Part shown: in pieces, positions 4,156-62,757 of the stretch
Layout of the letters: the number at the start of each line of letters is the position of its first letter
Numbering within the stretch: position 1 is the stretch's first letter
Source of the DNA: a virus
Lineage: Duplodnaviria > Heunggongvirae > Uroviricota > Caudoviricetes
Reading direction: 5' to 3' (one strand)
IMG/VR virus record: IMGVR_UViG_3300029517_000186
DNA: 64,000 nucleotides
Notes under the pieces: generated by a model
What the model saw: only the letters and a program-made list of their open reading frames with translations
The model's database searches: none
What the model was told of the DNA's origin: nothing
Program-made: the position numbers and the translations under genes

Positions 4156-4168
4156 TATGACAGAAAAA
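4156..4168 (-). promoter_or_regulatory. conserved promoter motif (class II: TTATGTAAA-N17-CTGTCATAT) for gene 3184..4119
   Basis: Plus strand reads TATGACAGAAAAA; TTTTACATAAAA box lies 17 nt away. Confidence 0.55.
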
Positions 4169-4317
4169 ATGAATTATTATTTTACATAAAATAATTGATG
4201 TGTATCAAAATAAGTCAGTAACTAAATGTAAATGCCTTTTATTTATTAAAATATCCCGTTTTTGTGTTCTTCTAAGCACTTTATTGGGTATACTATGCCT
4301 TTACTTGGGAAAAATAA

Positions 4318-4571
4318 TAACAATATATTGTACGTTTATTGTTGTATATTAGTTTAATATGTTAACTTTATTAACAATATATAGTTATTTAAGATTTATT
4401 AAAATATAGCTAAGATACAAAAATAATAACAATATATAGATATAAAATATGATTTAATATACATTAAAACTAACAACATTATGTTATAGAATAGAAAAAT
4501 TTGTGCAATAAAATTAACAATATATAGCTAAATATTTAATACATAAATGTAATAATGATAACAATATGTAG
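4318..4571. repeat. iteron-like array: five copies of TAACAATATATAG at 4318, 4372, 4427, 4515 and 4559
   Basis: 13-bp direct repeats spaced 54, 55, 88 and 44 bp (near multiples of 11) inside a 1.3 kb AT-rich non-coding region. Confidence 0.6.
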
Positions 4572-5504
4572 TAATGTATTATCCGTTGCATAGCCAATAA
4601 AATGCCTTATATGTGTCAGAATAATACCATGATGTAGTTATTATATGCTGATTTAAGAGATAAAAAATGTTAATTTGATAACATGTAATTGGTAATATTA
4701 GCAATTATATATGGATTAATTGGGTACAATAAACTGTATAATTAGTGAGAAAAATAAATATAACTGATTAATGGGATATAATTATTATTTACTAAAGTTA
4801 ATTAATGGAATTACTGGGAACATATATAGAAATGATAGAGTAAAGGAAATAGATCTAAGAGCAAATAAGAAAGAATTAGTGTATATGAATGCATCTATTG
4901 AGACAGAAATGGGATTATTGGGCTTACTAAGGCATTTGCAGGGCGAAGAATAGATTTACAGGAATCTAGTAATCATAATTTTTGTAAATATCATATATTA
5001 TATATAAGAAAATTATATGATTTATTGGTATATTAAAGGCATTAATTGGGATAAATGAAGTGCTTGCCAGAGACAGATAAGGAATTGCCAGGGAAATAAA
5101 CACAAAATGTATTAAGCTGATAAATGATATTGTATAAGGATATAACAATAATAGTTATACGCTTTTAATCCTTAATAATATTCTGGCGGTTATTATATTA
5201 AGTCTTAAAACGCTATTAAGGAATAATCAAATGTATTATATAAGGCTCTAATTTTTATATTTTAATAATAAAAAGCGTATCAATGAAAAAGAAAATAATA
5301 GAAGGGCTTTGAAGAAGGTGTATGACATATTACACTTAAAAGAAGTGTAATCATAAAAAATACAGCTACCTATTGATCAATGTCATTAAGTTAAGCTTTT
5401 GAGTATAAAAAAATAAAAACAGTCACTAATCTTGTAAAGAAAATGATATGATACCTCTTAAGTAGACATGGTAAATAACCAAAATCTATTTAAGGGGTAT
5501 TTTT

Positions 5505-6188
5505 ATGTCCAGAAAATCTAAGTATTCTATAGAACAGCGAGTACAAGCATGTGAAGACTATCACAATGGAACTCGTAGTTTAGAAGAAATATGTATAGCT
5601 CTCGGAACTACCAGAAAGAAAACTATCCGTGAGTGGTTAAAAAAATATGAGAAGTACGGAGTATCTGCTTTTCAGGAAAAGTCATATAACAAAAGTTATA
5701 CAAAAGAATTTAAAATTCAAGTAGTGGAAGAATATATAAGTGGTTATGGTTCACTAGAGGAACTGATTGTAAAATATGATATTTCTTCTACAACCCAACT
5801 ACGAAAATGGATTTCAGTGTATAATGCCAATAGAGAACTTAGGGACTATTGTCCAAAACCGGAGGTCTATATGGCAGAAGCAAGAAGAAAAACAAGCATT
5901 GAAGAACGCAAAGAAATCGTAAAGTATTGTATCGGACATAATCGTAATTATAAAGAAACTGCAAGTGCTTATGATGTCTCATACAATCAAGTCTATTCTT
6001 GGGTAAAAAAGTATGATGCACTAGGTGAAGAAGGATTAACAGATAAGCGTGGATGTCATAAAACGGATGAAGAGGTAGACGAATTGGAACGTCTTCGTCG
6101 GGAAAATGTACGTTTAAAGAAGCAACTCAAAGAAAAGGATATGTTAACGGAACTGTTAAAAAAAGTACAGGAATTCGAAAGGATGTGA
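5505..6188 (+). CDS. IS3-family transposase OrfA (HTH plus leucine zipper)
   Basis: 227 aa; two HTH regions; C-terminal LERLRRENVRLKKQLKEK zipper; AAGGGG RBS. Confidence 0.85.
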   Translation: MSRKSKYSIEQRVQACEDYHNGTRSLEEICIALGTTRKKTIREWLKKYEKYGVSAFQEKSYNKSYTKEFKIQVVEEYISGYGSLEELIVKYDISSTTQLRKWISVYNANRELRDYCPKPEVYMAEARRKTSIEERKEIVKYCIGHNRNYKETASAYDVSYNQVYSWVKKYDALGEEGLTDKRGCHKTDEEVDELERLRRENVRLKKQLKEKDMLTELLKKVQEFERM

Positions 6189-7150
6189 GGCTCGGAAAAC
6201 TTCGCTATAATTCGGAATTTATAGCAATAAAGTTTTTCTATGAAACAAAGAACTGGAGTATTAATTGGATGTGTAAACAGCTCGAAATATCAAGAGCTGC
6301 CTATTATAAGTGGTTGAATCGTGAGATACCTGAACAGGAAGCAGAAAATATGAAGTTGGCAGAACTTATAAAGGAGTACGATGAGCGCTTTAATCACATC
6401 CTGGGTTATAGAAGAATGACCTCTTGGATTAATCACTTTAACCATACTGATTATAAACCGAAGAGAGTACATCGAATTATGAAGAAGTTGGGTATTCATT
6501 CAGTCATTAGACGAAAGCAGAAAAAATATACTTCTTCGACACCGGAAGCAGTAGCTGAAAATAGATTAGGCAGAGACTTTTATGCAACTGCACCAAATGA
6601 GAAGTGGACAACTGATGTAACAGAGTTTAAGATTCCAGGTGAGAAAAAGAAACTTTATTTAAGTGCCATTCTTGACTTATATGATAGATACCCTGTTGCG
6701 TATGTTATCAGCACGAGAAATAATAATGAGCTCGTATTTAAAACCTTTGATAAAGCTATTGCCGCAAATCCTGAAGCTAAACCATTATTTCATAGTGATA
6801 GAGGTTTTCAGTATACAAGTAAGGTATTTCAAATGAAACTTAAGGAACATAAGATAGAACAATCTATGTCCAGAGTTGGACATTGTATAGATAATGGACC
6901 TACTGAAGGATTCTGGGGTATCATAAAATCAGAAATGTATCAGATGTACGATATAACAGATGAATCTTCATTAAGATTTGCAATAAAAGATTATATTAGA
7001 TTCTACAGTGAAGAACGACCACAAGACAGGTATCATTGCAAAACGCCACTAGATGTAAGAGCTGAAGCATTATCTACAGCAACACCACAACAGTATCTTA
7101 TTCCTAAAAATAAACGAATTGAAAAATATAAAGAGAAATGGTGTGCATAG
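6185..7150 (+). CDS. IS3-family transposase OrfB (DDE integrase core), made as an OrfAB fusion by -1 frameshift
   Basis: rve-type motifs WTTDVTEF, HSDRGFQYTS, CIDNGPTEGFWGIIKSE; overlaps orfA in the -1 frame. Confidence 0.85.
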   Translation: MRLGKLRYNSEFIAIKFFYETKNWSINWMCKQLEISRAAYYKWLNREIPEQEAENMKLAELIKEYDERFNHILGYRRMTSWINHFNHTDYKPKRVHRIMKKLGIHSVIRRKQKKYTSSTPEAVAENRLGRDFYATAPNEKWTTDVTEFKIPGEKKKLYLSAILDLYDRYPVAYVISTRNNNELVFKTFDKAIAANPEAKPLFHSDRGFQYTSKVFQMKLKEHKIEQSMSRVGHCIDNGPTEGFWGIIKSEMYQMYDITDESSLRFAIKDYIRFYSEERPQDRYHCKTPLDVRAEALSTATPQQYLIPKNKRIEKYKEKWCA

Positions 7151-7404
7151 AAAAACGACCGTACACTTTATACGGTCGTTTAGCAACACTTCATTTTAGA
7201 TATTTAACCTGTCTACTTGACAGGGGGCATATCAAAAGTGGCTGTTTTTTTTATTATAAATTCTTACAATTTATCCCTATACACATAGGTATAAATATGA
7301 TATACTTTCAGCAACATTTCTATAAACTAAATATGTCACTTCTCCGGGCATGTTATCATACTTTTTCATTCATACGATAACATCAATGAAGGGAGTGTAC
7401 GCCT

Positions 7405-7584
7405 ATGAATAGACTAAAGATGGGAGCCGGTTTGAATGTTCAAATTGGAAAAGCTTCTATCCGTTATAAGCAAGGTACTTTGCGTAATAAGTCACGCATT
7501 AAGTATAATTATGACGGTTATGAACTTTTTTGCATAATGCTAAAGAGCATTAAAAAAGCAACCTCTTTATGCTTGCCGGCGTAA
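7405..7584 (+). CDS. small hypothetical protein (59 aa) in a GC-richer insert
   Basis: AAGGGAG RBS; ATG at 7405; followed by the GCAACC...GGTTGC-TTTTT terminator at 7585..7600. Confidence 0.3.
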   Translation: MNRLKMGAGLNVQIGKASIRYKQGTLRNKSRIKYNYDGYELFCIMLKSIKKATSLCLPA

Positions 7585-7754
7585 GGTTGCTTTTTAAGTA
7601 ACTGAAAAATATAAGTGACATATCAGTTTATAGATATGTCTTTTTCTTGACATAAGTTTAAAGAAATCAAACATAAATGTCAAGAGTGTTTTTGATAATA
7701 AACGTGAATTTATTATATAATAAATTCTCCTTTAATATTAAAACTTAATATATA

Positions 7755-7767
7755 TATGACAGAAAAA
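7755..7767 (-). promoter_or_regulatory. orphan copy of the conserved promoter motif with no ORF downstream
   Basis: TATGACAGAAAAA; in the minus orientation it is followed by an AAAGGAGAA RBS but no start codon or ORF of 20 aa or more. Confidence 0.4.
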
Positions 7768-8587: not shown

Positions 8588-9616
8588 TTACATAAAAGAT
8601 TGTATATTATATCCTTTTCGTCTGAAACGAACTCTAATCTTTTTTATTGCTTTTGATTCAATCTGTCTGATTCGTTCTCTGGAAACATTCCATTCAGTAC
8701 CTATATCTTTTAAAGTTTTAACCTTTGAACCATATCCCATTCTACTCTTAATTACATATAATTCTCTAGGAGTGAGACAATCTTCAACTTCTTTCCAAAG
8801 CAGTTCATTCATTTCTTTTTGAATAATCGTATCTTCAACTTTAGGTTCAGGCACTTCTATATAATCAGCCAAACACGAATCGTCATGGCCTTCATCACTT
8901 TGAATAGGTGCATCTAACGAAACCAATTCATTAAAGCTCTGAATATGTACAAGCATTTCTTTAGTTAAAAGAGGATATCTTTGTTTTACTACATCATATA
9001 ATTCATCAATTGTAGGTTTTCTTTGAAGTTTATTAGTTAAATCCACAAATGTAGTCTTAACAAAAGAATCCTGTTCTCTTACATGTACAGGGAATCTAAC
9101 TAATAAATCATAATTGGCTAATTCTCTATATATACTCTGTCTAATCCAATGAGTTGCATAAGTTGAAAACGCATATCCTAATTTATAATCAAACATTTGT
9201 ATAGCTTTGTATAATCCGAAAATACCGGCCTGACATAAATCATCCATTTCAAAACTTTGCGTTTTAGCTGTAACAGCTTTAGCAATACTGATAACTAAAC
9301 GCATATTAGATAAAATCAATTTTTCTGTTATTTCCTTTTTCTTTTTAGGATGTTTTTTTATCTCTTCAAATAATTTAAGAGTTTCATCTTTGGATAAAAC
9401 CGGATAATCAGCAAATGATTTAATATAATAAGTTATATTATTTTCTAATAATAGTTTCTGTTTTTCATTTGAAATCTCTTTATCATTTAAAATATCGGTA
9501 TAATTATCCTCTGATAAAATATTTATGTTTTCTATTGGTTTATTTGTATCAAATAATTCATCAACATATTCATCTTTATTGTTTTTTTTATTTAATAATA
9601 AATTCTTATCTGCCAT
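8588..9616 (-). CDS. RNA polymerase sigma factor, sigma-70 family
   Basis: Region 2 motifs LVISIAK and YATHWIRQSI; region 4 HTH TLKDIGTEWNVSRERIRQIESKAIKKIR; AGAGGAG RBS. Confidence 0.9.
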   Translation of the reverse strand: MADKNLLLNKKNNKDEYVDELFDTNKPIENINILSEDNYTDILNDKEISNEKQKLLLENNITYYIKSFADYPVLSKDETLKLFEEIKKHPKKKKEITEKLILSNMRLVISIAKAVTAKTQSFEMDDLCQAGIFGLYKAIQMFDYKLGYAFSTYATHWIRQSIYRELANYDLLVRFPVHVREQDSFVKTTFVDLTNKLQRKPTIDELYDVVKQRYPLLTKEMLVHIQSFNELVSLDAPIQSDEGHDDSCLADYIEVPEPKVEDTIIQKEMNELLWKEVEDCLTPRELYVIKSRMGYGSKVKTLKDIGTEWNVSRERIRQIESKAIKKIRVRFRRKGYNIQSFM

Positions 9617-9628: not shown

Positions 9629-10024
9629 TTAACATTGATGTCCTAGCATTTTTAATTCATTATTTGCTTCTATTTTCATTGTACATATTCTACTAATTGC
9701 ATTATATGTAAATTTAGATTGCTCTTCAAAGGTTCCTAATATATCTCGTTTAATCATAAGCTCTTTACATTTATCTGAAGACTCTTTGTGTAATTTCATT
9801 TCTTTTACCATTGAATCTAAAATAGAATGCATTGAGGAAAAATAGGTAAAATAATTTCCTACTTCACTCAATAAATTTCCTATTTCCAATAAATCTATTT
9901 CATCTGATCTAGGAATTTCTTTCTTAAAATTAATTAAATACCATTCATATAAATCCGTTGAAGAAGCTTCAAGGATATCACTTATAGACTTATTTTTTAA
10001 TTCATTATTCATATTTGTTTCCAT
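9629..10024 (-). CDS. hypothetical soluble protein co-transcribed between the CPBP protease and the sigma factor (candidate sigma partner)
   Basis: 131 aa; AAGGAG RBS; 3-nt gaps to both neighbours; no promoter of its own. Confidence 0.55.
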   Translation of the reverse strand: METNMNNELKNKSISDILEASSTDLYEWYLINFKKEIPRSDEIDLLEIGNLLSEVGNYFTYFSSMHSILDSMVKEMKLHKESSDKCKELMIKRDILGTFEEQSKFTYNAISRICTMKIEANNELKMLGHQC

Positions 10025-10027
10025 AAA

Positions 10028-10939
10028 TTATTGCTCCTTAATTTCTATATTGATATTTTCAAAACACTTAATTACAAAATAAATTAAACTCATTATGCAG
10101 ACTATTAAAATGCATACCTGTAAATATATATTTGTTATAAAAAACGTAAATGGTATTAATGCCACACAGTTTATTAGAATATGATATAAGCTGCTAAGTT
10201 TAATACCATATTTATCTCTTACAGCACCTAACAAATATCCGCCAAAAGCATATATAGGGAATAAAATAAAATTAAAATGAATTATTCCAAATAAAACTGC
10301 TTGGATTATATTTGCACATAATTTATTGTTGCTTGCTTTATATGCATAGCCATAAATTATATATCTAAAAGTCAATTCCTCAATAATAGGTGCCACAAAA
10401 GTTGCTATTATTGTAGATATAATTGTTTTTATTCCTAAACTTCCATAATCAATATTTGATACATTTACAAAATGCATTTGAATTCCTGAAATAAGCTGCA
10501 ATATTACAGAAGTTAATATGAAACAAAATACAAAATTCCAATTTACTACTAATTTATTTTTCATAAACAAATCTTTTTTATAATTGTAAAATGAGCTTTT
10601 TATACAAATAATGCACATAACAAACATTAATGTATATGTTGATATTGTGTAAATTAATCGAAATCCTTCATAATCTATTTTAGTTGAAATTCCTCCTGCA
10701 TCATTCATATACATATTTAATAGACTGTCTATAAATGTTGCAATAAACATAGAAAATAAAATTATAAAAACAGAAATAATAAATGGAATAAAAATCTTTA
10801 TATACTGTTTTGATTTTGAAAAGAAAGAATTACTTTTCATTTTGTTTTTTGCCATAAAATCCATATAAGAATTTAAATCATGCTTATTTTTTTTATTTCT
10901 TAATTCCTTAATATTACTGTTGTTGTTACTAAGTATCAT
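10028..10939 (-). CDS. CPBP-family (Abi/CAAX, PrsW-like) intramembrane metalloprotease
   Basis: Polytopic; motif 1 EELTFR (APIIEELTFRYII), motif 2 FGIIH, downstream conserved His; GGAGGA RBS. Confidence 0.8.
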   Translation of the reverse strand: MILSNNNSNIKELRNKKNKHDLNSYMDFMAKNKMKSNSFFSKSKQYIKIFIPFIISVFIILFSMFIATFIDSLLNMYMNDAGGISTKIDYEGFRLIYTISTYTLMFVMCIICIKSSFYNYKKDLFMKNKLVVNWNFVFCFILTSVILQLISGIQMHFVNVSNIDYGSLGIKTIISTIIATFVAPIIEELTFRYIIYGYAYKASNNKLCANIIQAVLFGIIHFNFILFPIYAFGGYLLGAVRDKYGIKLSSLYHILINCVALIPFTFFITNIYLQVCILIVCIMSLIYFVIKCFENINIEIKEQ

Positions 10940-10968
10940 ATATTTTCCTCCAACCTTTCTAATATATA

Positions 10969-10981
10969 TATGACAGATACA
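10969..10981 (-). promoter_or_regulatory. class II promoter for the CPBP-ORF-sigma operon
   Basis: TATGACAGATAC with TTTACATAAAAAAA placed so that ATGTAAA-N17-CTGTCAT on the coding strand. Confidence 0.55.
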
Positions 10982-11002
10982 ATTTTAAAAATCTTTACAT
11001 AA

Positions 11003-12737: not shown

Positions 12738-12773
12738 TTTAAATTTCTCCTTTCAATTCATAACTATATAATT

Positions 12774-12786
12774 TATGACAGAAAAT
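12774..12786 (-). promoter_or_regulatory. conserved promoter motif for the dnaE C-part
   Basis: TATGACAGAAAAT, 35 nt upstream of the AAGGAG RBS and ATG. Confidence 0.55.
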
Positions 12787-13659: not shown

Positions 13660-13747
13660 TATCTGGCGAATTTATTGCATTTACTAATTCCTTAAATTCT
13701 TTAATCATATTTTTTACTCTCCTTCCATTTATTGTTATAATAAATAA

Positions 13748-13760
13748 ATGACAGAAAAAT
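13748..13760 (-). promoter_or_regulatory. conserved promoter motif (variant AATGACAGAAAAA)
   Basis: Upstream of 13129..13659, followed by the terminator at 13765..13795. Confidence 0.45.
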
Positions 13761-15126: not shown

Positions 15127-15158
15127 TAATTTTTCTCCTTTATAATTTTTAATATATT

Positions 15159-15171
15159 TATGACAGAAAAA
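15159..15171 (-). promoter_or_regulatory. conserved promoter motif for the FEN gene
   Basis: TATGACAGAAAAA. Confidence 0.55.
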
Positions 15172-16248: not shown

Positions 16249-16284
16249 AATTTTATTCTCCTTTTTAAATTTTATAATAATACA

Positions 16285-16297
16285 ATGACAGAAAAAT
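16285..16297 (-). promoter_or_regulatory. conserved promoter motif (ATGACAGAAAAA)
   Basis: Upstream of the acidic-protein operon, followed by the terminator at 16299..16330. Confidence 0.5.
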
Positions 16298-18308: not shown

Positions 18309-18346
18309 AATATTGTTCTCCTTTATTTATTATAATTTAAAAGAAA

Positions 18347-18359
18347 TATGACAGAAAAA
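18347..18359 (-). promoter_or_regulatory. conserved promoter motif
   Basis: TATGACAGAAAAA, then terminator hairpin AACGCA ... TGCGTT (18357..18386). Confidence 0.55.
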
Positions 18360-20962: not shown

Positions 20963-20997
20963 TAAATTTCCTCCTTTATAAATTTTATAATTAATAC

Positions 20998-21010
20998 ATG
21001 ACAGAAAAAA
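20998..21010 (-). promoter_or_regulatory. conserved promoter motif (CATGACAGAAAAA)
   Basis: Upstream of the dnaE N-part, followed by the terminator at 21012..21039. Confidence 0.5.
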
Positions 21011-22225: not shown

Positions 22226-22263
22226 AATGAAAAATCTCCTTTTTTTATTTTATTCAAATAAAA

Positions 22264-22276
22264 TATGACAGAAAAA
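22264..22276 (-). promoter_or_regulatory. conserved promoter motif
   Basis: TATGACAGAAAAA. Confidence 0.55.
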
Positions 22277-23407: not shown

Positions 23408-23448
23408 GATTAAGTCCTCCTTTTATTTTTTATTTAATACAAATTACA

Positions 23449-23461
23449 TATGACAGAAAAA
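23449..23461 (-). promoter_or_regulatory. conserved promoter motif
   Basis: TATGACAGAAAAA, followed by the terminator at 23475..23510. Confidence 0.55.
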
Positions 23462-24553: not shown

Positions 24554-24861
24554 AATCTGTCCCTCCCATTTTATTTCTTCTTCTCTAATCTTTATTATTA
24601 AAATCCTGCCTTTTACAGGTAAGCAAAATGCTTAGGTTGAGTTTCACTATTTACTTTTATTGAAAAACAATAAAGGAAAATGTTAAAGCTGAATAATAAA
24701 TTATTCTGCCTTATTATTTTTCTTCTTGTTTTCTTCCTTTTCCTTTAAAAGACTATTCTCCATCTTTACAAAAATTGATTTCTTCTTGCCAAAAGGCTTT
24801 GCTGTAATTCCCATTTGTTAAATCCTTTCTTAATTAAAATATTTTTTAAAGACATTTAATA

Positions 24862-24874
24862 TATGACAGATTTA
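24862..24874 (-). promoter_or_regulatory. class II promoter (TTATGTAAAAAAT-N-CTGTCATATAT) after the kinase gene
   Basis: TATGACAGATTT with TTTACATAAA at 24886..24895; terminator hairpin at 24898..24926. Confidence 0.5.
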
Positions 24875-24934
24875 ATTACTCATTTTTTTACATAAAAAAA
24901 GAGATGGTTTTTGCCACCTCTTTTTTAAAATAAT

Positions 24935-25720: not shown

Positions 25721-25755
25721 ATATTAACTCCTTTTATCTTAAAATTTATTAAATA

Positions 25756-25768
25756 TATGACAGAAAAA
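25756..25768 (-). promoter_or_regulatory. conserved promoter motif
   Basis: TATGACAGAAAAA, then the terminator at 25764..25800 (AGTCCCATTTA ... TAAATGGGACT). Confidence 0.55.
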
Positions 25769-27008: not shown

Positions 27009-27875
27009 TTATTTTGTTTGATAAAGAAGATATGACAGAAAATTATTTACATTAGAATTTAAATTGTTATTTCTTATTACTAAAATATTTCTTATAACAA
27101 TTATGAAAAATATAATACTCATTACGATTAGACAAATATTTTGCAACATAACAGGCATAAATGAATACAATACACTACTTGCATTAACTCCAATATGAAT
27201 TAAAATAGAGGGCAATAAATTATCTGTTTTTATATATACATAGGCTAATATAATACCGAAAATAAATGCATAAGTGCTTTGAATAATATTAAAATGCACT
27301 AATCCAAAAACGAAAGCTGATATATAAATTGAGCTTACATCTGGTTTCTTAAAGAATTTGTTTTGCTTTATTATTTTTGTAATACCGTATCTAAATATTA
27401 ATTCTTCAACAACTGGCGTAATAACACCTGTTATTAAGAGTACTTGAAGCCAATTTCCGGTTACAGTAACATTCATCAAAGAATTATATGAGTTAGAAAC
27501 TAAATTATTAGGTAAGGAATCTATTACCACAGAAGCTAAAAAATTCATAATAATGCCTGTTAAAATAAATGTCTTGACATCTTTTAATGATAATTTTGAA
27601 ATAAATATGATTGATTTATTAACTTTATATTCTTTAAGCACAACAAACTCAAGTATTATAATGTCAGAAACAAATAATGCAGGCATAATTAATTCACTGA
27701 GCATACTAAGATAACTATATGAAAGTAAATTACCTGTTTCTATACATACATATAAATTATCATACCATTGTGAATCAGAAAACAATTTAAAAATAAATAC
27801 GCCCAATGTACATACAATTTGAGTAATAAGAAAGGCAAATACTATTCCAATAATCTTTGTAATTTGTTTAATCAT
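27009..27875 (-). CDS. CPBP-family (Abi/CAAX) intramembrane protease, second copy
   Basis: GGAGGT RBS and ATG at 27875 (MIKQITKII...); VVEELIFRYG, FVFGLVHFN, HIGVN. Confidence 0.8.
   Translation of the reverse strand: MIKQITKIIGIVFAFLITQIVCTLGVFIFKLFSDSQWYDNLYVCIETGNLLSYSYLSMLSELIMPALFVSDIIILEFVVLKEYKVNKSIIFISKLSLKDVKTFILTGIIMNFLASVVIDSLPNNLVSNSYNSLMNVTVTGNWLQVLLITGVITPVVEELIFRYGITKIIKQNKFFKKPDVSSIYISAFVFGLVHFNIIQSTYAFIFGIILAYVYIKTDNLLPSILIHIGVNASSVLYSFMPVMLQNICLIVMSIIFFIIVIRNILVIRNNNLNSNVNNFLSYLLYQTK
27031..27043 (-). promoter_or_regulatory. conserved promoter motif for the methyltransferase
   Basis: TATGACAGAAAAT; CTTTATCAAA box between the motif and the RBS. Confidence 0.55.
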
Positions 27876-28055
27876 TATTTTGTTGACCTCCAAATTGCTT
27901 TATTTTTATTTTGATATGATTTTTTAATTTCTATTAAGTCTATTATTATAATTCCTTCTTAAAAAAGTTTATATATATTAATATGACGGAGTGAAACAAA
28001 AAAAATAGCAGGAATTAACCTGCTATTTTTATTATATTCAATTGTATTAAATTAA

Positions 28056-30977: not shown

Positions 30978-31010
30978 AAAATATCTCCTTTATTATTTTG
31001 ATAAAGAAAA

Positions 31011-31023
31011 TATGACAGAAAAA
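31011..31023 (-). promoter_or_regulatory. conserved promoter motif
   Basis: TATGACAGAAAAA upstream of the helicase gene. Confidence 0.55.
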
Positions 31024-34774: not shown

Positions 34775-34787
34775 TATGACAGAAAAA
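34775..34787 (-). promoter_or_regulatory. conserved promoter motif
   Basis: TATGACAGAAAAAAAA. Confidence 0.55.
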
Positions 34788-34943: not shown

Positions 34944-35002
34944 TATAGAAATAAAATTGATTTTTTCTTTTTAATTGAATATTTTATATATGACATAAAA
35001 TA

Positions 35003-35462: not shown

Positions 35463-35475
35463 ATATGACAGAGGA
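35463..35475 (-). promoter_or_regulatory. conserved promoter motif
   Basis: TATGACAGAGGAA; preceded by the terminator at 35478..35510 (AACTGTCAG ... CTGACAGTT). Confidence 0.5.
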
Positions 35476-38465: not shown

Positions 38466-38513
38466 TTGTAAATAATACTCAAAATACTCCATTAATTTGA
38501 AAGCATATATAAT

Positions 38514-38526
38514 ATGACAGAAATAA
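38514..38526 (-). promoter_or_regulatory. conserved promoter motif heading the long leader
   Basis: TATGACAGAAATA immediately after the recA stop. Confidence 0.5.
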
Positions 38527-39639: not shown

Positions 39640-39678
39640 ATTTAATTCCTCCTAAAAAATGATTTATACATTGATATA

Positions 39679-39691
39679 TATGACAGTTTTT
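39679..39691 (-). promoter_or_regulatory. class II promoter for recA
   Basis: TATGACAGTTTT plus TTTTTTACATAAA 17 nt away. Confidence 0.55.
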
Positions 39692-39729
39692 GTTGAACAA
39701 TTTTTTACATAAATTAATTTAATTTATAT

Positions 39730-40221: not shown

Positions 40222-40257
40222 ATTTTTCCTCCAATATATATAACTTTATATTAAAAA

Positions 40258-40270
40258 TATGACAGCTTAA
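40258..40270 (-). promoter_or_regulatory. conserved promoter motif (TATGACAGCTTAA)
   Basis: Upstream of the RuvC-like gene. Confidence 0.45.
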
Positions 40271-42103: not shown

Positions 42104-42140
42104 ATAATTTATTCTCCTTTTCAATATTATTTAACAAATT

Positions 42141-42153
42141 AATGACAGAAAAA
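42141..42153 (-). promoter_or_regulatory. conserved promoter motif (AATGACAGAAAAA)
   Basis: Followed by the terminator at 42160..42205. Confidence 0.5.
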
Positions 42154-42595: not shown

Positions 42596-42632
42596 TATTT
42601 CTTCTCCTTTATTAATTATATTCTGATAGATA

Positions 42633-42645
42633 TATGACAGAAAAA
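42633..42645 (-). promoter_or_regulatory. conserved promoter motif
   Basis: TATGACAGAAAAA. Confidence 0.55.
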
Positions 42646-44769: not shown

Positions 44770-44804
44770 AAATAACCTCGCTATGAAAATCTTATATATA
44801 TCTT

Positions 44805-44817
44805 TATGACAGACAAA
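44805..44817 (-). promoter_or_regulatory. class II-like promoter (TGTGTAA-N17-CTGTCAT)
   Basis: TATGACAGACAAAAAAA plus TTCTTACACAAAAAAAA. Confidence 0.45.
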
Positions 44818-44880
44818 AAAATTTTTTTTCTTACACAAAAAAAATAGTGCCATTTCTGACACTATTAAAACTTGGATATA

Positions 44881-46895: not shown

Positions 46896-46911
46896 AATCT
46901 TTTATTTAAAA

Positions 46912-46924
46912 TATGACAGATTTA
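46912..46924 (-). promoter_or_regulatory. class II promoter for uvrD
   Basis: TATGACAGATTTA plus TTCTTACATAAAAAA; terminator at 46947..46975. Confidence 0.55.
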
Positions 46925-46956
46925 TAGTGAATTTTTCTTACATAAAAAAGAGAAGC

Positions 46957-47700: not shown

Positions 47701-47734
47701 AATGTTTCTCCATTAATATATTGTTCATTATATA

Positions 47735-47747
47735 TATGACAGAGAAA
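47735..47747 (-). promoter_or_regulatory. conserved promoter motif
   Basis: TATGACAGAGAAAAAAA; terminator at 47745..47782. Confidence 0.55.
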
Positions 47748-49768: not shown

Positions 49769-49831
49769 ATAAATCCTCCAAAATATATTAATCTTATATT
49801 GTTTGATAGAAAATTAATTCTATATAATATA

Positions 49832-49844
49832 TATGACAGAACAA
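49832..49844 (-). promoter_or_regulatory. conserved promoter motif
   Basis: TATGACAGAACAAAA; terminator at 49849..49877. Confidence 0.55.
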
Positions 49845-51034: not shown

Positions 51035-51069
51035 TTTTTCTCCTTTGGCTTTGTTATTATATATATTGA

Positions 51070-51082
51070 ATGACAGAAATAT
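51070..51082 (-). promoter_or_regulatory. conserved promoter motif (variant ATGACAGAAATA)
   Basis: Upstream of operon 51034..49895. Confidence 0.45.
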
Positions 51083-51762: not shown

Positions 51763-51806
51763 AATATCTATTTAACTCCTTAAATTAAAATCTTAATTAA
51801 TAAATA

Positions 51807-51819
51807 TATGACAGTTTAA
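51807..51819 (-). promoter_or_regulatory. conserved promoter motif
   Basis: TATGACAGTTTAA; terminator at 51846..51876. Confidence 0.5.
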
Positions 51820-52965: not shown

Positions 52966-52978
52966 ATAAAAAATATAT
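52966..52978 (-). promoter_or_regulatory. conserved promoter motif
   Basis: TATGACAGAAAAAAC. Confidence 0.55.
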
Positions 52979-53006
52979 GACAGAAAAAACAGTATATGTT
53001 AAAGAT

Positions 53007-55340: not shown

Positions 55341-55375
55341 AATTATTCTCCTTTATATTTATTTACACAATAAAT

Positions 55376-55388
55376 ATGACAGAGAATA
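55376..55388 (-). promoter_or_regulatory. conserved promoter motif for the PBP gene
   Basis: TATGACAGAGAAT; preceded by the terminator at 55391..55422. Confidence 0.55.
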
Positions 55389-55590: not shown

Positions 55591-55592
55591 TA

Positions 55593-55605
55593 TATGACAG
55601 ATTTT
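55593..55605 (-). promoter_or_regulatory. class II promoter with no downstream protein gene
   Basis: TATGACAGATTTT plus TTTTTACATAA 17 nt away. Confidence 0.45.
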
Positions 55606-55618
55606 TGACTGCAAATTT

Positions 55619-56752
55619 TTACATAATTTTATTTTTGCCTGTTCTTTTAGCTTTATACAAATTTTTATCTGCTGCATCAAATAAATCGTGAACGGTATTA
55701 TTTTTCTTATATTCTGTTATTCCTCCAGAGAAAGTAAATTGCTGCGGAATATTCTCATATTTAATATTGTTGAATTTAATTCTGATATCGTTAATTATAT
55801 TATACGCCTCAGTATATTCATAATCTGCAAATAATATTCCGAATTCTTCGCCTCCATATCTGGCGACAAAAATATTTGATTGGTTAATATTTTGAAGTTC
55901 CTTAGCTAAATTAATTAAAACAGTATTTCCAAATTCATGTCCATATGTATCGTTAACTGATTTAAAATCATCTATATCTATTATACAAAAATGAAGTTTT
56001 TTCTTATATGATATCCATTTCTTTGTTGTATTAAAAAGAGACCTATAATTATCTAATCGAGTTAATCCATCTTGTGAAATTTCTTTTAGTAATTGTGCAT
56101 TTCTATTTTCAGATAAAACCAGTTTAAGTTCTTTTTCTTTCTCATATTTAATAACAAGTCTTGAATAAATATATGCAAATATTGTTATGATACATGATAA
56201 AAACATATATATTAAATAATTTGATGGTAACTTATTTAATTCAGAGATTGATGATAATGAAATTGTAATAATTTCAAATTGACTTATCAAAAATAATTGC
56301 CAATTAACCTTGTTACTACCATATACAATACACATAAAAATTGGGCAGGCTATTAATGTATATAATACCGGATAATTATAATGAATGATAATTGAAACCA
56401 CTATAATTAAAGTTAAAATATACAAAGGCATGGCTTCATATATTTCTGGTATAATATTATCTTGATATTTTCTTATAATTTGTCTACCGGTAAACCATAT
56501 TATTAAATTAGATGTAGTAGGTATAAATACATTCAATATAATATAAGATAATATATTTATTGTTTGTTTTTCTATTATTATGTGTATTGGTATAAATAAT
56601 AATTCAAAAATAAATATTGTGATTATTATAAGAAGGTTAATAGCCATTATTTTATTTTGAAATTTATTATACAAATATGCGTATAAACTGGTTTGTTTTT
56701 CTGTATGATTTATTGTATTATCTTGTATTTTAATTTTTTCTATTGTTTTCAT
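55619..56752 (-). CDS. GGDEF-domain diguanylate cyclase with an N-terminal polytopic membrane domain
   Basis: Active-site RYGGEEF; about seven TM helices at the N-terminus. Confidence 0.85.
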   Translation of the reverse strand: MKTIEKIKIQDNTINHTEKQTSLYAYLYNKFQNKIMAINLLIIITIFIFELLFIPIHIIIEKQTINILSYIILNVFIPTTSNLIIWFTGRQIIRKYQDNIIPEIYEAMPLYILTLIIVVSIIIHYNYPVLYTLIACPIFMCIVYGSNKVNWQLFLISQFEIITISLSSISELNKLPSNYLIYMFLSCIITIFAYIYSRLVIKYEKEKELKLVLSENRNAQLLKEISQDGLTRLDNYRSLFNTTKKWISYKKKLHFCIIDIDDFKSVNDTYGHEFGNTVLINLAKELQNINQSNIFVARYGGEEFGILFADYEYTEAYNIINDIRIKFNNIKYENIPQQFTFSGGITEYKKNNTVHDLFDAADKNLYKAKRTGKNKIM

Positions 56753-58109: not shown

Positions 58110-58149
58110 AGGTCCTCCTTATAGTCAAAAAAAGTTATATTAATATATA

Positions 58150-58162
58150 TATGACAGATAAT
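58150..58162 (-). promoter_or_regulatory. conserved promoter motif for the HD-GYP/GGDEF operon
   Basis: TATGACAGATAAT. Confidence 0.5.
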
Positions 58163-58268
58163 ATTAAAAAAAGAGTTCAACGTGACTAAGTAAGATCATG
58201 CTTACCGTTACCGCTGAACCCTTTTTATAAAAAATATAATTAGCTCCTTTATTTTTAGCTAATAATAA

Positions 58269-58281
58269 TATGACAGAATTA
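58269..58281 (-). promoter_or_regulatory. promoter motif heading a roughly 90-nt unit with no ORF
   Basis: TATGACAGAATTA; downstream AAAGGAGC then a 10-bp stem (with G-U pairs), 29-nt structured loop and U-run at about 58170..58225. Confidence 0.4.
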
Positions 58282-59987: not shown

Positions 59988-60024
59988 TTTGAATACGCCT
60001 CCTTTAATTAATTGATGTAATATA

Positions 60025-60037
60025 TATGTCAGAAAAA
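60025..60037 (-). promoter_or_regulatory. conserved promoter motif (variant CTGACATAT on the coding strand)
   Basis: Plus strand TATGTCAGAAAAA. Confidence 0.45.
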
Positions 60038-61340: not shown

Positions 61341-61423
61341 AAATTACTACCTTGTTGCTATATTAGCAACTTCCTTTCTAAAATAATATTGAAGTTTTTA
61401 TTACACAAAACATCTAAAAATAA

Positions 61424-61460
61424 TATGACAGACATAAAAAATAAAATCTGTCATATATAT
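61424..61460. promoter_or_regulatory. inverted pair of promoter motifs (TATGACAGAC ... CTGTCATATATAT): divergent promoters
   Basis: Minus copy serves 60624..61340; plus copy is followed by an AAAGGAGGAAA RBS and ATG-TAG start-stop at 61491..61496, then the terminator at 61566..61600. Confidence 0.45.
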
Positions 61461-61771: not shown

Positions 61772-61792
61772 ATATACTTTCTCCTTTTCATT

Positions 61793-62614
61793 TTACATAT
61801 CAAAGTTTCTAGTTATTCTTGCCGTTCTAAGGATAATGTCCTTTGTATTCTGATCAAGATTTTCTGCATTAATAATAACTGCTGTCTTATCATTGCTAAG
61901 CTTCATTTCTGGAGTAATCTTAGCGTACATTAATGTGGCTTCAAGACCGCCTATAACTGCATCTGCATTTTTATTAGCAGAAATCTTTAATACCATTTCA
62001 GAATCATCTGAACTATCATTAGGTGTTACTGGAACTGAAGATTCTGATTCTGATGATTCTTCTACTGGGTCAACATTTACTGTGTCTGATACATCAGTAT
62101 TTGAATTATTGTAAACAGCTTCAGATACATCTTCATTTTCACTTGAAACTAATTCATCATCGACCTGTTCATTATATTCTGGGACCTCTGTAATAACTGC
62201 TGTACTTTCTGATACCTGTGAATCATTATTTGCTTCTTCATTAATAGGTTCATTAATGGTATCAACAATAGTGTCAGCAATAGTGTCATCAACAGAATCA
62301 TTAGAAGTATCATCCTGATTCCAAGGCAATTCCTTTTCATCTAAAACTGGTTCTTCAACCATTTCAGTTATTTCTGATTCAGCAATTTTAGACGAGATTT
62401 TTTCTTTTTCTGCATTAATATCTTCAAGTGTTGGAGCAATTTCTTTTGCAACAACAGGAGCTTCTACATCTAAAACTGACTCCTTTGTATTTGCTCCAAC
62501 ATTATTAATTAATAATGCTGCCATTAGATTCTTTATTTCTTCAATTTTTGTATTTGGAATAACAATATGTACTCCATTGCCCTCTTCAAAAAGGCTTATT
62601 GTCTGCATATTCAT
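61793..62614 (-). CDS. highly acidic, low-complexity protein
   Basis: AAAGGAGCA RBS and ATG at 62614 (MNMQTISLFEEGNG...); D/E/S-rich middle segment; promoter at 62654. Confidence 0.6.
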   Translation of the reverse strand: MNMQTISLFEEGNGVHIVIPNTKIEEIKNLMAALLINNVGANTKESVLDVEAPVVAKEIAPTLEDINAEKEKISSKIAESEITEMVEEPVLDEKELPWNQDDTSNDSVDDTIADTIVDTINEPINEEANNDSQVSESTAVITEVPEYNEQVDDELVSSENEDVSEAVYNNSNTDVSDTVNVDPVEESSESESSVPVTPNDSSDDSEMVLKISANKNADAVIGGLEATLMYAKITPEMKLSNDKTAVIINAENLDQNTKDIILRTARITRNFDM

Positions 62615-62653
62615 ACTATATATGCTCCTTTCATTTTTTATTACTAAATAATG

Positions 62654-62666
62654 TATGACAGAAAAA
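62654..62666 (-). promoter_or_regulatory. conserved promoter motif
   Basis: TATGACAGAAAAAAAAA. Confidence 0.5.
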
Positions 62667-62707
62667 AAAATCAAACTGCAAAATTAATAAAAAAATAAAT
62701 TAATTAT

Positions 62708-62725
62708 AAGTGTATATATACACTT
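62708..62725. promoter_or_regulatory. perfect 18-bp palindrome AAGTGTATATATACACTT between divergent promoters; oriT candidate for the MobV relaxase
   Basis: Lies 55 bp upstream of the mob start; resembles MobV-type oriT inverted repeats with a GTGT core. Confidence 0.45.
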
Positions 62726-62741
62726 TATTATTTTTTCTGTC

Positions 62742-62757
62742 ATATCTTAATTAATAT
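62742..62757 (+). promoter_or_regulatory. conserved promoter motif in plus orientation (TTTTTTCTGTCATATC) for mob
   Basis: 34 nt upstream of the GAGG RBS and ATG of 62781. Confidence 0.5.

Follow-up and report, generated by a model that had tools for sequence, protein, structure and literature searches.

The window analysed here, a 64,000-nucleotide stretch of an element with a GC content of 28% that was recovered from gut samples, carries one short motif ahead of a large part of its genes. The question it raises is whether these sites are promoters and, if they are, which polymerase reads them. The motif itself is real. The exact sequence CTGTCATAT was found 30 times in the whole window, against 0.80 expected and a largest shuffle of 3, with 27 of the 30 copies on the minus strand, and TCTGTCATA is the top over-represented 9-mer (32 copies versus 1.6 expected under a 3rd-order Markov model). 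One-mismatch variants were admitted only when they had the T-tract and the right spacing; with them the total is 42 sites, 40 on the minus and two on the plus strand, so that the initial annotation was right in counting more than 40. All 42 share the orientation of the gene behind them. An IS3-type insertion sequence (about 5444-7233, plus strand), which served as a negative control, is free of motif sites. The sites, divided into class I and a class II with an additional upstream box, are as follows.

4155..4189 (−): class II, start of DUF5688 gene 3184-4119 at 44 nt from the C of CTGT
7754..7763 (−): class I TCTGTCATAT, SD downstream, no called ORF
10968..11002 (−): class II of the CPBP/131-aa/sigma operon, directly behind the DnaE-C terminator
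12773..12782 (−): class I (TCTGTCATAA) ahead of DnaE C-terminal part 11052-12737; adjoins terminator
13746..13755 (−): class I variant TCTGTCATTT; adjoins terminator
15158..15167 (−): class I ahead of 5'-3' exonuclease gene 14245-15126; adjoins terminator
16283..16292 (−): class I variant TCTGTCATTG ahead of 15790-16248; adjoins terminator
18346..18355 (−): class I ahead of 18072-18308
20996..21005 (−): class I variant TCTGTCATGT ahead of DnaE N-terminal part 18413-20962; adjoins terminator
22263..22272 (−): class I ahead of 21074-22225
23448..23457 (−): class I ahead of 22358-23407
24861..24895 (−): class II; SD and ATG 55 nt downstream, then a short ORF only
25755..25764 (−): class I ahead of small ORF 25571-25720; adjoins terminator
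27030..27039 (−): class I ahead of DNA methylase gene 26099-26995
27981..27990 (−): class I variant TCCGTCATAT; second CPBP gene 27009-27875 starts 114 nt on
31010..31019 (−): class I ahead of 973-aa UvrD-like helicase gene 28056-30977
32907..32941 (−): class II, 138-nt leader with leader repeat, then flotillin gene 31203-32777
33457..33466 (−): class I variant TCAGTCATAT ahead of 32996-33421
34774..34783 (−): class I ahead of 34467-34739 and DnaG-like gene 33532-34470
34988..34997 (−): variant TATGTCATAT, then leader repeat; no SD nearby
35463..35472 (−): class I ahead of 35003-35425; adjoins terminator
38512..38521 (−): class I; no called ORF downstream
39678..39712 (−): class II ahead of recA 38545-39639
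40257..40266 (−): class I ahead of 39730-40221
42140..42149 (−): class I variant TCTGTCATTA ahead of recJ 40352-42103
42632..42641 (−): class I ahead of 42209-42595
44804..44838 (−): class II variant (TGTGTAAG box) ahead of 588-aa protein 43003-44769
46911..46945 (−): class II (TATGTAAG box), 113-nt leader with leader repeat, then uvrD 44881-46806
47734..47743 (−): class I ahead of 46957-47700; adjoins terminator
49831..49840 (−): class I ahead of 48449-49768; adjoins terminator
51068..51077 (−): class I variant TCTGTCATTC ahead of 50819-51034
51806..51815 (−): class I (ACTGTCATAT) ahead of 51148-51762
52975..52984 (−): class I ahead of 52634-52921
55374..55383 (−): class I ahead of PBP1 gene 53007-55340; adjoins terminator
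55592..55626 (−): class II of an ORF-less unit of roughly 190 nt, ending at the terminator before 55383
58149..58158 (−): class I ahead of HD-GYP gene 56895-58109
58268..58277 (−): class I; SD downstream, no ORF; adjoins terminator
60024..60033 (−): class I variant TCTGACATAT ahead of 59787-59987 and PARP-domain gene 58484-59770
61423..61432 (−): class I, 91 nt ahead of 60624-61340; back-to-back with plus-strand site 61447..61456
61447..61456 (+): class I, then SD and ATG-TAG
62653..62662 (−): class I (TCTGTCATAC) ahead of 61793-62614
62736..62745 (+): class I ahead of Mob_Pre relaxase gene 62781-63986

Non-coding DNA makes up 13.6% of the sequence in the ORF model and holds 31 of the 35 exact CTGTCATA sites scanned (binomial P 5e-23). 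A gene start lies ahead of 33 of these 35 8-mers, including those at 27038 and 31018, which are 41-43 nt ahead of a start codon and overlap another ORF at its end only; just two, 29735 and 40570 on the plus strand, are truly intragenic, and both are antisense, which is the chance level. The check for equal frequency within coding sequence, proposed when the motif was first described, thus found it to be intergenic instead. The claimed fixed spacing was also recovered: at 30 of 34 scorable sites the SD begins 25-38 nt, and the start codon lies 37-49 nt, past the C of CTGT. As had been noted, the plus-strand sites at 61448 and 62737 are inverted along with their targets. A site is present at most 200 nt upstream of 34 of the 63 minus-strand genes, and 19 further minus-strand genes that have none follow the preceding gene by 40 nt or less and look operon-internal. 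Motif sites precede almost every transcription unit of the element.

The upstream gene's intrinsic terminator directly adjoins about 60% of the sites. Terminator-like hairpins are enriched (17 versus 4.5 expected), many of them leading straight into the motif, and a hairpin of -8 kcal/mol or lower is found just upstream of 21 of 34 class I sites compared with 22% of random windows. Since such terminators stop transcripts just ahead of the motif, a new start is needed there. Intergenic position, strand locked to the downstream gene, fixed distance to SD and start codon, location after intrinsic terminators and retention in diverged relatives together bear out the promoter-level signal that the initial annotation had proposed.

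The position of the SD 25-38 nt past the motif places the TSS within about 20 nt after it, which rules the motif out as a -35 element. In the position-weight matrix TG is invariant and is followed by one base and then CATAT; ten consecutive positions are nearly invariant. Of the 42 sites, 36 share a conserved T15/R16 step (P 1e-21), which would correspond to -1/+1 given a 6-nt discriminator; in three other lineages the corresponding step is Y/R in 13 of 15 sites. This putative -1/+1 lies 7-8 nt past CATAT, in agreement with the TSS predicted earlier at 6-9 nt. Three anchors, TG at -15/-14, A at -11 and the T/R step taken as -1/+1, fix the register, in which the motif is best read as a putative extended -10 promoter that lacks a -35 element. 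Base -7 is W only (A in 17 and T in 11 among 31 sites). T at -7 is normally the second most conserved -10 base, and this weakly fixed position was counted against the extended -10 reading.

A candidate reader of the motif is encoded within the window, in an operon that includes the following genes.

8588..9616 (−): RpoD-like sigma, 342 aa, candidate motif reader; Pfam Sigma70_r2 and r4
9629-10024 (−): 131-aa protein, between the CPBP gene and the sigma gene
10028-10939 (−): CPBP/Rce1-like membrane protease, upstream of the sigma gene; together with the 131-aa gene it spans 9629..10939

The gaps in the sigma operon are 3 and 12 nt, and the CPBP and 131-aa genes are read as putatively co-transcribed with the sigma gene. 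The sigma scores best with RpoD models, not RpoH, although its 173-181 bits with the NCBIfam RpoD models are far under their cut-offs of 555-572. Of about 60 window proteins scanned, it is the only one recognisable as a transcription protein; the sequence covered was 64 kb with flanks of about 20 kb, out of an element that measures at least 270 kb, and further transcription factors may be elsewhere. PDB alignments indicated that it retains PVH..E, the TG readers equivalent to H455/E458, and SRERIRQ, of which RERIRQ represents the canonical -35-reading residues. Retention of the latter, although class I has no -35 element, was counted against the -35-independent reading. The alignment of ATHWIRQSIYR with ATWWIRQAITR indicates that the equivalents of W433 and T440 are H and Y, so that the W-dyad reads HW as in sigma-32. 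The changed -12-reading T440 equivalent and the HW dyad fit a C at -12: T440I and Q437H are the classical suppressors of a T to C change at -12 (PMC2613000), and sigma-32 H107 is wedged between A-11 and the paired C-12 (8HKC; PMC10216364). The element sigma that the initial annotation had invoked exists, therefore, and its DNA-reading residues appear compatible with the motif.

We hold it moderately likely that the motif sites are the element's promoter set, read by host core RNA polymerase with the sigma encoded at 8588-9616 as a -35-independent extended -10; the link between sigma and motif we infer from co-occurrence and residue logic. Such a promoter would consist of a T-rich tract at -29 to -17, the core T(-17) C(-16) T(-15) G(-14) T(-13) C(-12) A(-11) T(-10) A(-9) T(-8) W(-7), an AT-rich stretch of six bases, T(-1) and the start at A/G(+1), followed by a 5' UTR of about 26-33 nt bearing a strong SD. 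As the whole would fit within about 30 bp, it could be placed directly behind the preceding intrinsic terminator with the T-run in common, and a promoter behind each terminator would make most genes their own terminator-bounded unit. C instead of T at -12, together with the altered -12-reading sigma residues, would keep the regulon apart from host sigma-A promoters.

It is unlikely, in our estimation, that the host sigma-A holoenzyme reads the motif, alone or with an element co-factor imposing the extra bases, while the element sigma serves another regulon. The motif does differ at one base (-12) from the Gram-positive TRTGnTATAAT-type extended -10, relatives have CTGTTATAT and CTTATATAT versions, and with the sigma operon itself behind the motif something must fire it first. 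If sigma is required for its own synthesis a host sigma-A entry promoter should exist; none was identified for the sigma gene. On the other hand, the near-invariant bases C-16, T-13 and C-12 all depart from the sigma-A consensus, and it is difficult to see why forty sites should share one "down" base at -12 unless a dedicated reader exists. The sigma residues for -12 and for the wedge are altered in the matching direction, and no other enriched promoter-like motif for this sigma to serve was found in the window.

Still less probable is a main role as an operator, with the motif bound by a global regulator encoded on the element and overlapping ordinary promoters. KorA/KorB operators mark IncP-1 promoters in this way, PhoB binds CTGTCAT repeats, and CTGTCATA matches one repeat of the E. 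coli Pho box exactly (compare PMC10294691); class II sites also have a second TGTMA-like box at a fixed distance. Each site is nevertheless a single non-palindromic copy for which a second half-site 11 bp away was not found, its register relative to the T/R step and the SD is fixed, scans of the window's proteins gave no HTH or winged-helix regulator, and a separate -10/-35 is not discernible, canonical TTGACA-N17-TATAAT being without enrichment in the window (127 versus 141 expected). A role in RNA, as a processing site or 5'-UTR signal defining monocistronic mRNAs in read-through transcripts, would agree with the constant location between hairpin plus U-run and SD and is very improbable, because the terminators end transcripts before the motif, the T/R step and TG-N-CAT geometry have no RNA rationale, the T-tract is kept at 13 of 34 class I sites that have no strong hairpin, and the plus-strand copies and the divergent pair 61423/61448 act like DNA-level start signals.

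Class II is real as a separate class. TRTGTAAR-N17-CTGTCATA has 8 matches in the window against 0.00 expected, at 4156, 10969, 24862, 32908 (given before as 32909), 39679, 44805 (the variant), 46912 and 55593, and the arrangement holds 7 of the window's 10 TTATGTAAR copies. What is not supported is its description as a sigma-70-like -35/-10 geometry: the 17-nt spacer needs CTGTCA as the -10 hexamer, which would then have no A-11, a base universal in -10 hexamers. A canonical -35 reading of the box was rejected, as in the TG/A-11/TR-step register it occupies -42 to -34 and its spacer to CATATW is 21-22 bp, 4-5 bp too long. Across lineages only the T-tract and TRTG (about -41 to -38), and not TTATGTAAA, are conserved in it. 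Under the extended -10 reading, class II promoters would carry this T-tract and TRTG as an added box, the sigma operon's own promoter included.

Three further sigma lineages, 38-51% identical, are located at syntenic loci of related elements with the same motif. The order DnaE-C, CPBP, small protein, sigma is kept in the syntenic loci L004, L096 and L097-99, which have the T-tract and CTGTCATAT ahead of genes. In each of the four lineages examined the sigma operon begins with a class II promoter, the only new fact that bears on whether the two classes are temporal or use two holoenzymes, as the initial annotation had suggested; these four promoters share only the terminator, the T-tract with TRTG, and TCTGTYATAT. 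Support for the extended -10 register comes from the natural variant CTGTTATAT, which is TGnTATAT. P0003, P0121, P0122 and P0123 make up a small sigma clade, and the T440 position is altered in all four members (I, I, R, Q). Both C and T occur at -12 with the L096 sigma (W, I), and the L097 sigma (H, R) is accompanied by CTGTCATAT as well as CTTATATAT-type sites; covariation of the -12-reading residues with the -12 base, as judged from these lineages, is not clean, which counts against the proposed pairing of sigma and motif.

The proposed arrangement is of a known kind, of which this is a new and very clean example. As with the phage sigmas, a mobile element would redirect host core RNA polymerase to its own, highly uniform promoter. 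Phage sigmas with a genome-wide promoter consensus include SPO1 gp28 and gp33/34, T4 gp55 and phiEco32 gp36; they are small, highly diverged and act in lytic temporal cascades, and T4 late promoters are -10-only. Unlike these, the carrier here encodes a relaxase and a type IV coupling protein and looks plasmid-like. SigN (ZpdN) of the Bacillus subtilis plasmid pBS32 has a plasmid-restricted regulon (PMC6751061). In both cases, here on the proposed reading, a large-plasmid sigma sends host core RNA polymerase to a consensus promoter that is essentially plasmid-only, targets include replication/repair genes, and the sigma gene is behind a promoter of its own type (PMC6751061). SigN itself belongs to the divergent alternative sigmas and uses a two-box promoter (ATTTACGTTT, about 14 nt, AGATATAA) at roughly 15-20 sites, and sigN has an additional LexA-repressed sigma-A promoter (PMC6751061), whereas here an RpoD-like sigma, with no sigma-A entry promoter seen, goes together with a putative extended -10-only promoter with C at -12, at about 42 sites on nearly all units of 64 kb.

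Extended -10 (TGn) promoters, including the Gram-positive TRTG "-16 region", have in common with the motif the TG one base upstream of the hexamer, the invariant A-11, the dispensable -35 and the H455/E458 equivalents in sigma (PMC2613000). The motif differs from them in C instead of T at -12, C instead of a purine at -16 and W instead of T at -7, in the 13-nt T-tract that fills the spacer, and in its run of near-invariant positions. The sigma-32 (RpoH) -10 element CCCCATNT shares C(-12) A(-11) T(-10) n T, and sigma-32 shares the HW wedge dyad in place of WW (PMC10216364, PDB 8HKC). In sigma-32 promoters a -35 (CTTGAA) and a C-run are present and TG is missing (PMC10216364), and no heat-shock context is apparent for the element sigma.

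Inocles (PMC12340149) and Hodors (PMC12934698) are giant extrachromosomal elements known from human metagenomes; they measure several hundred kb and are frequently classed as viral. Inocles reportedly encode an "RpoS" sigma, DNA polymerase III alpha, RecJ, helicases and bifunctional transglycosylases, a repertoire that the window resembles in reported gene content; the word "promoter" occurs 0 times in the Inocle paper, which has no promoter analysis (PMC12340149). The GC content of Hodors is 45-47% (PMC12934698), far from the 28% found here, and that of Inocles is low, 24-32% (PMC12340149). Inocles are oral and were assigned to Streptococcus (PMC12340149), while the present element is from the gut and its RecA is closest to Lachnospiraceae proteins (73-75%).

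The sequence CTGTCATAT occurs 30 times in the 64 kb of the window, 27 of them on the minus strand, whereas dinucleotide shuffles predict 0.8. In an unbiased k-mer screen based on a third-order Markov expectation, TCTGTCATA was the top over-represented 9-mer of the window (32 versus 1.6). Site placement was assessed with an ORF model of 75 ORFs that cover 86% of the window. The 13.6% that is non-coding holds 31 of the 35 exact copies of CTGTCATA scanned (P = 5e-23). The copies at 27038 and 31018 lie 41-43 nt upstream of a start codon and overlap only the tail of another ORF, and just two of the 35 (29735 and 40570, both on the plus strand) are truly intragenic. These two are antisense and represent the chance level. 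When one-mismatch variants that have a T-tract and are correctly spaced from a start codon are included with the exact copies, the set consists of 42 sites, 40 on the minus and 2 on the plus strand, all directed toward the downstream gene, in agreement with the earlier count of more than 40 intergenic regions carrying the motif. Measured from the C of CTGT, the start codon is at 37-49 nt in 30 of 34 scorable sites, and the Shine-Dalgarno (SD) sequence at 25-38 nt. A site is present within 200 nt upstream of 34 of the 63 minus-strand genes; 19 further minus-strand genes lack one, begin within 40 nt of the preceding gene and are apparently internal to operons. The motif extends beyond the window on both sides, is rarer in the transfer region, whose operons are longer, and is also found in the flanks (L001/2, L090) and in contigs of related elements with diverged sigma factors (L004, L096 and L097-99). 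The existence of an element-wide motif is thus confirmed.

Class I sites, which consist of a T-tract followed by a 10-mer core, were aligned on the C of CTGT as position 0 (n = 34). Between -13 and -1, T is found in 17 to 32 of the 34 sites per position, and in at least 20 at all positions but one. The core that follows, TCTGTCATAT, is succeeded by six AT-rich unconserved bases, after which there is a T at +15 in 30 and a purine at +16 in 32 of the sites. In the full set this T15/R16 step is present in 36 of 42 sites, compared with a background TR frequency of 17.5% (P = 1e-21), and the same step is pyrimidine/purine in 13 of 15 sites of three other lineages. Within the core T1 and G2 are invariant and are followed by T3 and then by C4 A5 T6 A7 T8 W9, which puts the TG exactly one base before the hexamer. 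In the simplest reading transcription is predicted to start at +16, so that -1 is a pyrimidine and +1 a purine. With a start at this base CATATW would be the -10 hexamer (-12 to -7) with A5, invariant in 42 of 42 sites, at -11, the TG would fall exactly at -15/-14, the extended -10 position, and the T-tract would occupy -29 to -17. The variant CTGTTATAT of L096 is a plain TGnTATAT, which supports the extended -10 register. Position -7 is only A/T (A in 17 and T in 11 of 31 sites), where T is expected in an extended -10.

Other registers were rejected. A hexamer at positions 10-15 (TWTAWT) would have A at its -11 position in merely 42% of the sites, and one starting at T6 A7 T8 would place the TG 3 nt away and leave the T15/R16 step unexplained. 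A -35 element is excluded as well, since the SD sequence begins 25-38 nt after the motif and is thus too near. No consensus is seen between -35 and -30 of class I sites, a segment that is often inside a terminator stem or T-run, and canonical sigma-70-type promoter matches are not enriched (127 versus 141 expected in 20 kb). Sequence logic and conservation give good support to the promoter interpretation; in mechanism, this would be a promoter of the extended -10 kind whose -12C/HW signature is sigma-32-like.

The candidate reader of the motif is an RpoD-like sigma factor of 342 amino acids, the sole recognisable transcription protein among about 60 proteins scanned; the other helix-turn-helix (HTH) domains found in these proteins belong only to the transposase of an insertion sequence. 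A 619-aa ORF (43003-44862) with a weak sigma-70 match (E = 4e-4) was discarded as a second sigma factor, as no sigma region 2 was found on reading, and inspection by eye identified just a short C-terminal HTH-like stretch. The sigma factor is encoded by the third gene of an operon, behind genes for a membrane protease (CPBP/Rce1-like) and for a small soluble protein, 125-142 amino acids long. The operon lies directly after a C-terminal DnaE fragment, as follows.

Sigma factor gene and sigma operons in the window and in related elements
Window, 8588-9616, minus strand: sigma factor gene
Window, 8588-10939, minus strand: sigma operon
L004, 8674-11035: sigma operon
L096, 1631-4053: sigma operon
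L097, 8716-10912: sigma operon

Regions 2 and 4 are present in the sigma factor, which aligns to SigA/RpoD over residues 26-334 (region 1.2 to 4.2). It scored 173-181 bits with RpoD models (cut-offs 555-572) and 105.9-109.8 bits with RpoH models (cut-offs 241-323). It is therefore neither a primary (group 1) RpoD/SigA, being below the RpoD equivalog cut-offs and having an HW dyad instead of the group 1 WW, nor a sigma-32 (RpoH), with which the HW dyad is the sole common feature. Precomputed Pfam domains of its close homologues include Sigma70_r2 and r4 only; RpoD homologues add r1_2 and r3. Its residues were aligned to solved SigA chains, and we take the E. coli sigma-70 numbering to apply to them (H455, E458, W433, T440, Q437). 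Region 3.0 retains PVH..E, the equivalents of the TG readers H455 and E458, and region 4.2 retains SRERIRQ. Region 2.3/2.4 reads ATHWIRQSIYR versus ATWWIRQAITR, so that H stands in place of W433 and Y in place of T440. The substitutions T440I and Q437H are classical suppressors of a T to C promoter mutation at -12 (PMC2613000). In the case of sigma-32, which has an HW dyad and recognizes the -10 element CCCCATNT, H107 wedges between A-11 and the paired C-12 (PMC10216364, PDB 8HKC). In the light of these precedents the H and Y of the element's sigma factor are changes at residues expected to matter for the CAT at -12 to -10. A protein altered at residues relevant to -12 with its TG readers intact would fit the motif, and we consider it plausible, and rather probable, that the motif is read by the element's own sigma factor. 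Reading by the host sigma-A holoenzyme is unlikely, as it leaves unexplained 40 copies of a non-consensus C at -12, T at -13 and C at -16. An operator of a global regulator is considerably less probable still. It has in its favor, as a lead, that CTGTCATA equals one Pho-box repeat, and against it that each site is one non-palindromic copy whose register to the start and the SD sequence is fixed, and that no separate core promoter is visible. A PhoB-type Pho box, with two or more direct CTGTCAT repeats of 11-bp periodicity replacing the -35, was rejected since the core is single-copy; the sole second TGTMA-like box, that of class II sites, begins 24 bp upstream of the core. A Pho-box-style -35 substitute would again be too near the SD sequence.

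Intrinsic-terminator-like hairpins are enriched in the window (17 versus 4.5), and many run into the motif, e.g. '...TTTTTTCTGTCAT'. A hairpin of -8 kcal/mol or stronger is found within 55 nt upstream of 21 of the 34 class I sites, compared with 22% of random windows. The 13 hairpin-less class I sites keep the T-tract (8.9 T of 13 versus 4.3 expected). As hairpins abut the motif and the T-tract is kept without them, the T-run appears to serve both as terminator tail and as upstream promoter element. Most genes are separate units bounded by terminators. A signal acting at the RNA level is highly improbable, because transcripts end at terminators right before the motif. Between 61423 and 61500 two copies of the motif stand back to back, 16 nt apart (61431, minus strand, and 61448, plus strand). 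The plus-strand copy is followed by AGGAGG and ATG-TAG, a start and a stop, and the predicted transcript from it would be antisense to the genes at 61601-62614.

Outside this element, an exhaustive profile search with the sigma factor returned only four other lineages above ordinary RpoDs, represented by the proteins P0003 (51% identity by BLASTP) and P0121, P0122 and P0123 (38-40% in the alignment). In these four, in that order, the T440 position is altered to I, I, R and Q and the W433 position is N, W, H and S, i.e. altered in most. The order DnaE C-terminal part, CPBP protease, small protein and sigma factor is conserved in L004, L096 and L097-99; the P0123 contigs are too short for this comparison. 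In L004 CTGTCATA is again the top-ranked 8-mer and is located behind T-tracts, 28-45 nt before start codons. L096 carries CTGTCATAT as well as CTGTTATAT, and L097/99 carry CTGTCATAT plus sites with a T-tract and CTTATATAT. As a consequence of these mixed -12 variants, covariation of sigma residues with the -12 base is suggestive in the sequences compared, and not clean. Alignment of the four orthologous sigma-operon promoters shows conservation of the terminator, of the T-tract and TRTG, and of TCTGTYATAT. DNA and protein searches of phage and plasmid collections gave no close relatives, and species-representative genomes held no close relative of the sigma factor. In genome contigs the sigma alignment retrieved only sigmas that are ordinary or distant, so no host was assigned by this means; a search of viral contigs with low-complexity peptide patterns from the alignment found the same element again and nothing else. 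PrsW, the site-1 protease of the anti-sigma factor RsiW, is in the same superfamily as the CPBP proteases. This kinship, with the CPBP partner in the operon, suggests by analogy that the sigma operon could be a proteolytic sigma/anti-sigma switch.

The class II arrangement, TRTGTAAR-N17-CTGTCATA, is present in 8 copies versus 0.00 expected, and the positions reported for it initially are correct, one being off by a base. Multiple class II matches were found in only two contigs among 2.9 million viral contigs, both from the same element, and a search of viral contigs with the class I 14-mer gave single chance matches among the matches listed. Across lineages the upstream box reads TATGTAAA, TGTGTAAG, TGTGCTGA, TATGCCGA, TATGTCTA or TATGTCAA, with the T-tract and TRTG as the only constant part. 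The G of TRTG lies 21 nt (20 in L097/99) before the core C, i.e. at about -41 to -38. The initial annotation had taken this arrangement for a sigma-70-like -35/-10 geometry, which fails in the register supported here because the box is 4-5 bp upstream of the -35 hexamer position; with a spacer of 21-22 bp to CATATW the box was rejected as a canonical -35. A reading of the box as a second extended -10 promoter in tandem, upstream of the first, was also rejected: the six bases that follow TRTGn (AAAATA, CGAAAA, CTAATT and others) show no conserved A at -11 and are thus not a -10. In sequence, the box is similar to the first half of the core (T-tract and TNTGT). As class II cores are mostly without an adjacent T-tract, this tract and the upstream box look like alternatives. 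The box is possibly bound by an activator or co-factor, contacted by region 4 in an unusual way, or used by the host holoenzyme for entry. No LexA or Cheo boxes were seen by eye in the class II spacers. Class II promoters precede the sigma operon in all four lineages, and also recA, one uvrD, a flotillin gene, the genes for a 588-aa protein and a DUF5688 protein, a short ORF, and an ORF-less unit of about 190 nt (55400-55600, minus strand) whose end is a strong terminator immediately in front of the PBP promoter. This unit, a candidate small RNA, includes an internal hairpin (AGGCATACATATATGCCT, then CCTC). Promoter-only units akin to it are located at 7762, 38520 and 58276.

A more far-reaching reading, which we regard as doubtful, is that transcription of the whole element is insulated from the host. 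Sigma-A would leave nearly all of its genes silent, and these would be fired only by one private RpoD-derived sigma factor re-tuned to C at -12; this factor would be gated by the conserved CPBP/PrsW-like protease and the small protein as a release switch; and entry would occur via class II promoters, whose T-tract and TRTG box at about -40 would be read by a mechanism so far undescribed for sigma-70-family holoenzymes. Region 4 might reach across the spacer of 21-22 bp, a second contact to a TG might be made, or a co-factor of the appropriator type might take part.

The closest precedent is SigN, encoded by plasmid pBS32, with a plasmid-restricted regulon (PMC6751061), followed by phage sigmas. 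As in those systems the sigma gene is carried by the element; here there is a uniform motif at 42 sites in the window, found on relatives too and absent from the insertion sequence. If the assignment to the element's sigma factor is true, the sites provide a transcription map, with unit boundaries, terminators and predicted starts, for a giant element that is abundant in the human gut and uncultured, and plasmid-like elements, not phages alone, can run almost all their genes via one private RpoD-derived sigma factor. It would also constitute a compact natural sigma/promoter pair of about 30 bp, without a -35 and possibly orthogonal, for engineering of Bacillota, and a natural experiment on -12 recognition via the HW dyad and the T440 position. 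The system opens no new category of mechanism.

The G+C content of the window is about 28% overall (25-33% in 4-kb bins), and nearly all genes are on one strand. They include replication and repair genes (split DnaE, two UvrD-like helicases, RecJ, RecA, a DnaG-type zinc ribbon and a 5'-3' exonuclease) and those for a class A PBP, flotillin, GGDEF, HD-GYP and PARP-domain proteins, a DNA methylase, two CPBP proteases and a Mob_Pre relaxase. Just beyond the right end are a type IV coupling protein (VirD4/TraG-type) and a 1285-aa protein, and no virion genes were recognisable in the window and its flanks (L090-L093). The exact relaxase protein is found in 374 and the exact sigma factor in 56 blocks of an assembly collection, on contigs of up to 449 kb; RecA variants 99% identical are on contigs whose length reaches about 760 kb. 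IMG/VR lists two fragments of this element as 'viral' contigs. The nearest cellular RecA proteins are those of Lachnospiraceae (73-75% identity). The gene repertoire, the coupling protein, the contig sizes and the RecA affinity point to a giant plasmid-like element of gut Bacillota, probably conjugative. Possible identities are a giant conjugative plasmid not yet described, or a relative of the oral 'Inocles' (PMC12340149), which, compared by description only, are alike in gene repertoire, including an 'RpoS' sigma, and in low GC; the RecA of the present element points instead to Lachnospiraceae, and promoters are not discussed in the Inocle paper. Membership in the Hodor megaplasmids was rejected because of their GC of 44.6-47.1% (PMC12934698). 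The two genes of the DnaE-type polymerase (18413-20962 and 11052-12737, minus strand) are about 5.7 kb apart, each with its own promoter, and in relatives (L004, 2606-8573; L097, 2720-8682) an HNH endonuclease gene divides the N-terminal part a second time. An IS3-family insertion at about 5444-7233 (plus strand), composed of an HTH ORF and an rve integrase ORF, carries no copy of the promoter motif and is missing from L001 and L002, contigs otherwise 99.5-99.98% identical; its best match in the plasmid collection is a Streptococcus salivarius plasmid with only 72% identity.

A tRNA scan of the window was negative, and Rfam searches at gathering score and at E up to 1 returned nothing relevant. 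An L20-leader match at 15160-15250 (minus strand; 28.8 bits versus a gathering score of 58.7, E = 0.14) overlaps a terminator hairpin and the promoter at 15166 and is probably due to chance. A leader element of about 60 nt, with the consensus TTATCGMA..AGCAAGAAAACTCCATCCGACAATAGTCGGTTGYGAGTAGTTCA and always on the gene strand, recurs at the following positions.

Copies of the leader element
Window, 17346-17384, minus strand: leader element
Window, 25515-25553, minus strand: leader element
Window, 32812-32850, minus strand: leader element
Window, 34888-34926, minus strand: leader element
Window, 46840-46878, minus strand: leader element
Window, 60566-60604, minus strand: leader element
L004, 6216-6270: leader element
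L004, 6396-6450: leader element

In the window, five of the six copies are placed after a promoter or the end of a gene and before the next SD sequence; the copy at 60.6 kb is behind a gene end, with no called minus-strand gene after it. The element has no Rfam match even at E up to 1. Its predicted hairpin consists of 11 pairs, with compensatory changes at 3 pairs among the 8 copies, and the 5' arm holds an anti-SD-like CUCC. This candidate for a new cis-regulatory RNA accounts for the long SD-less leaders after the class II promoters at 32915 and 46919 and the variant at 34996.
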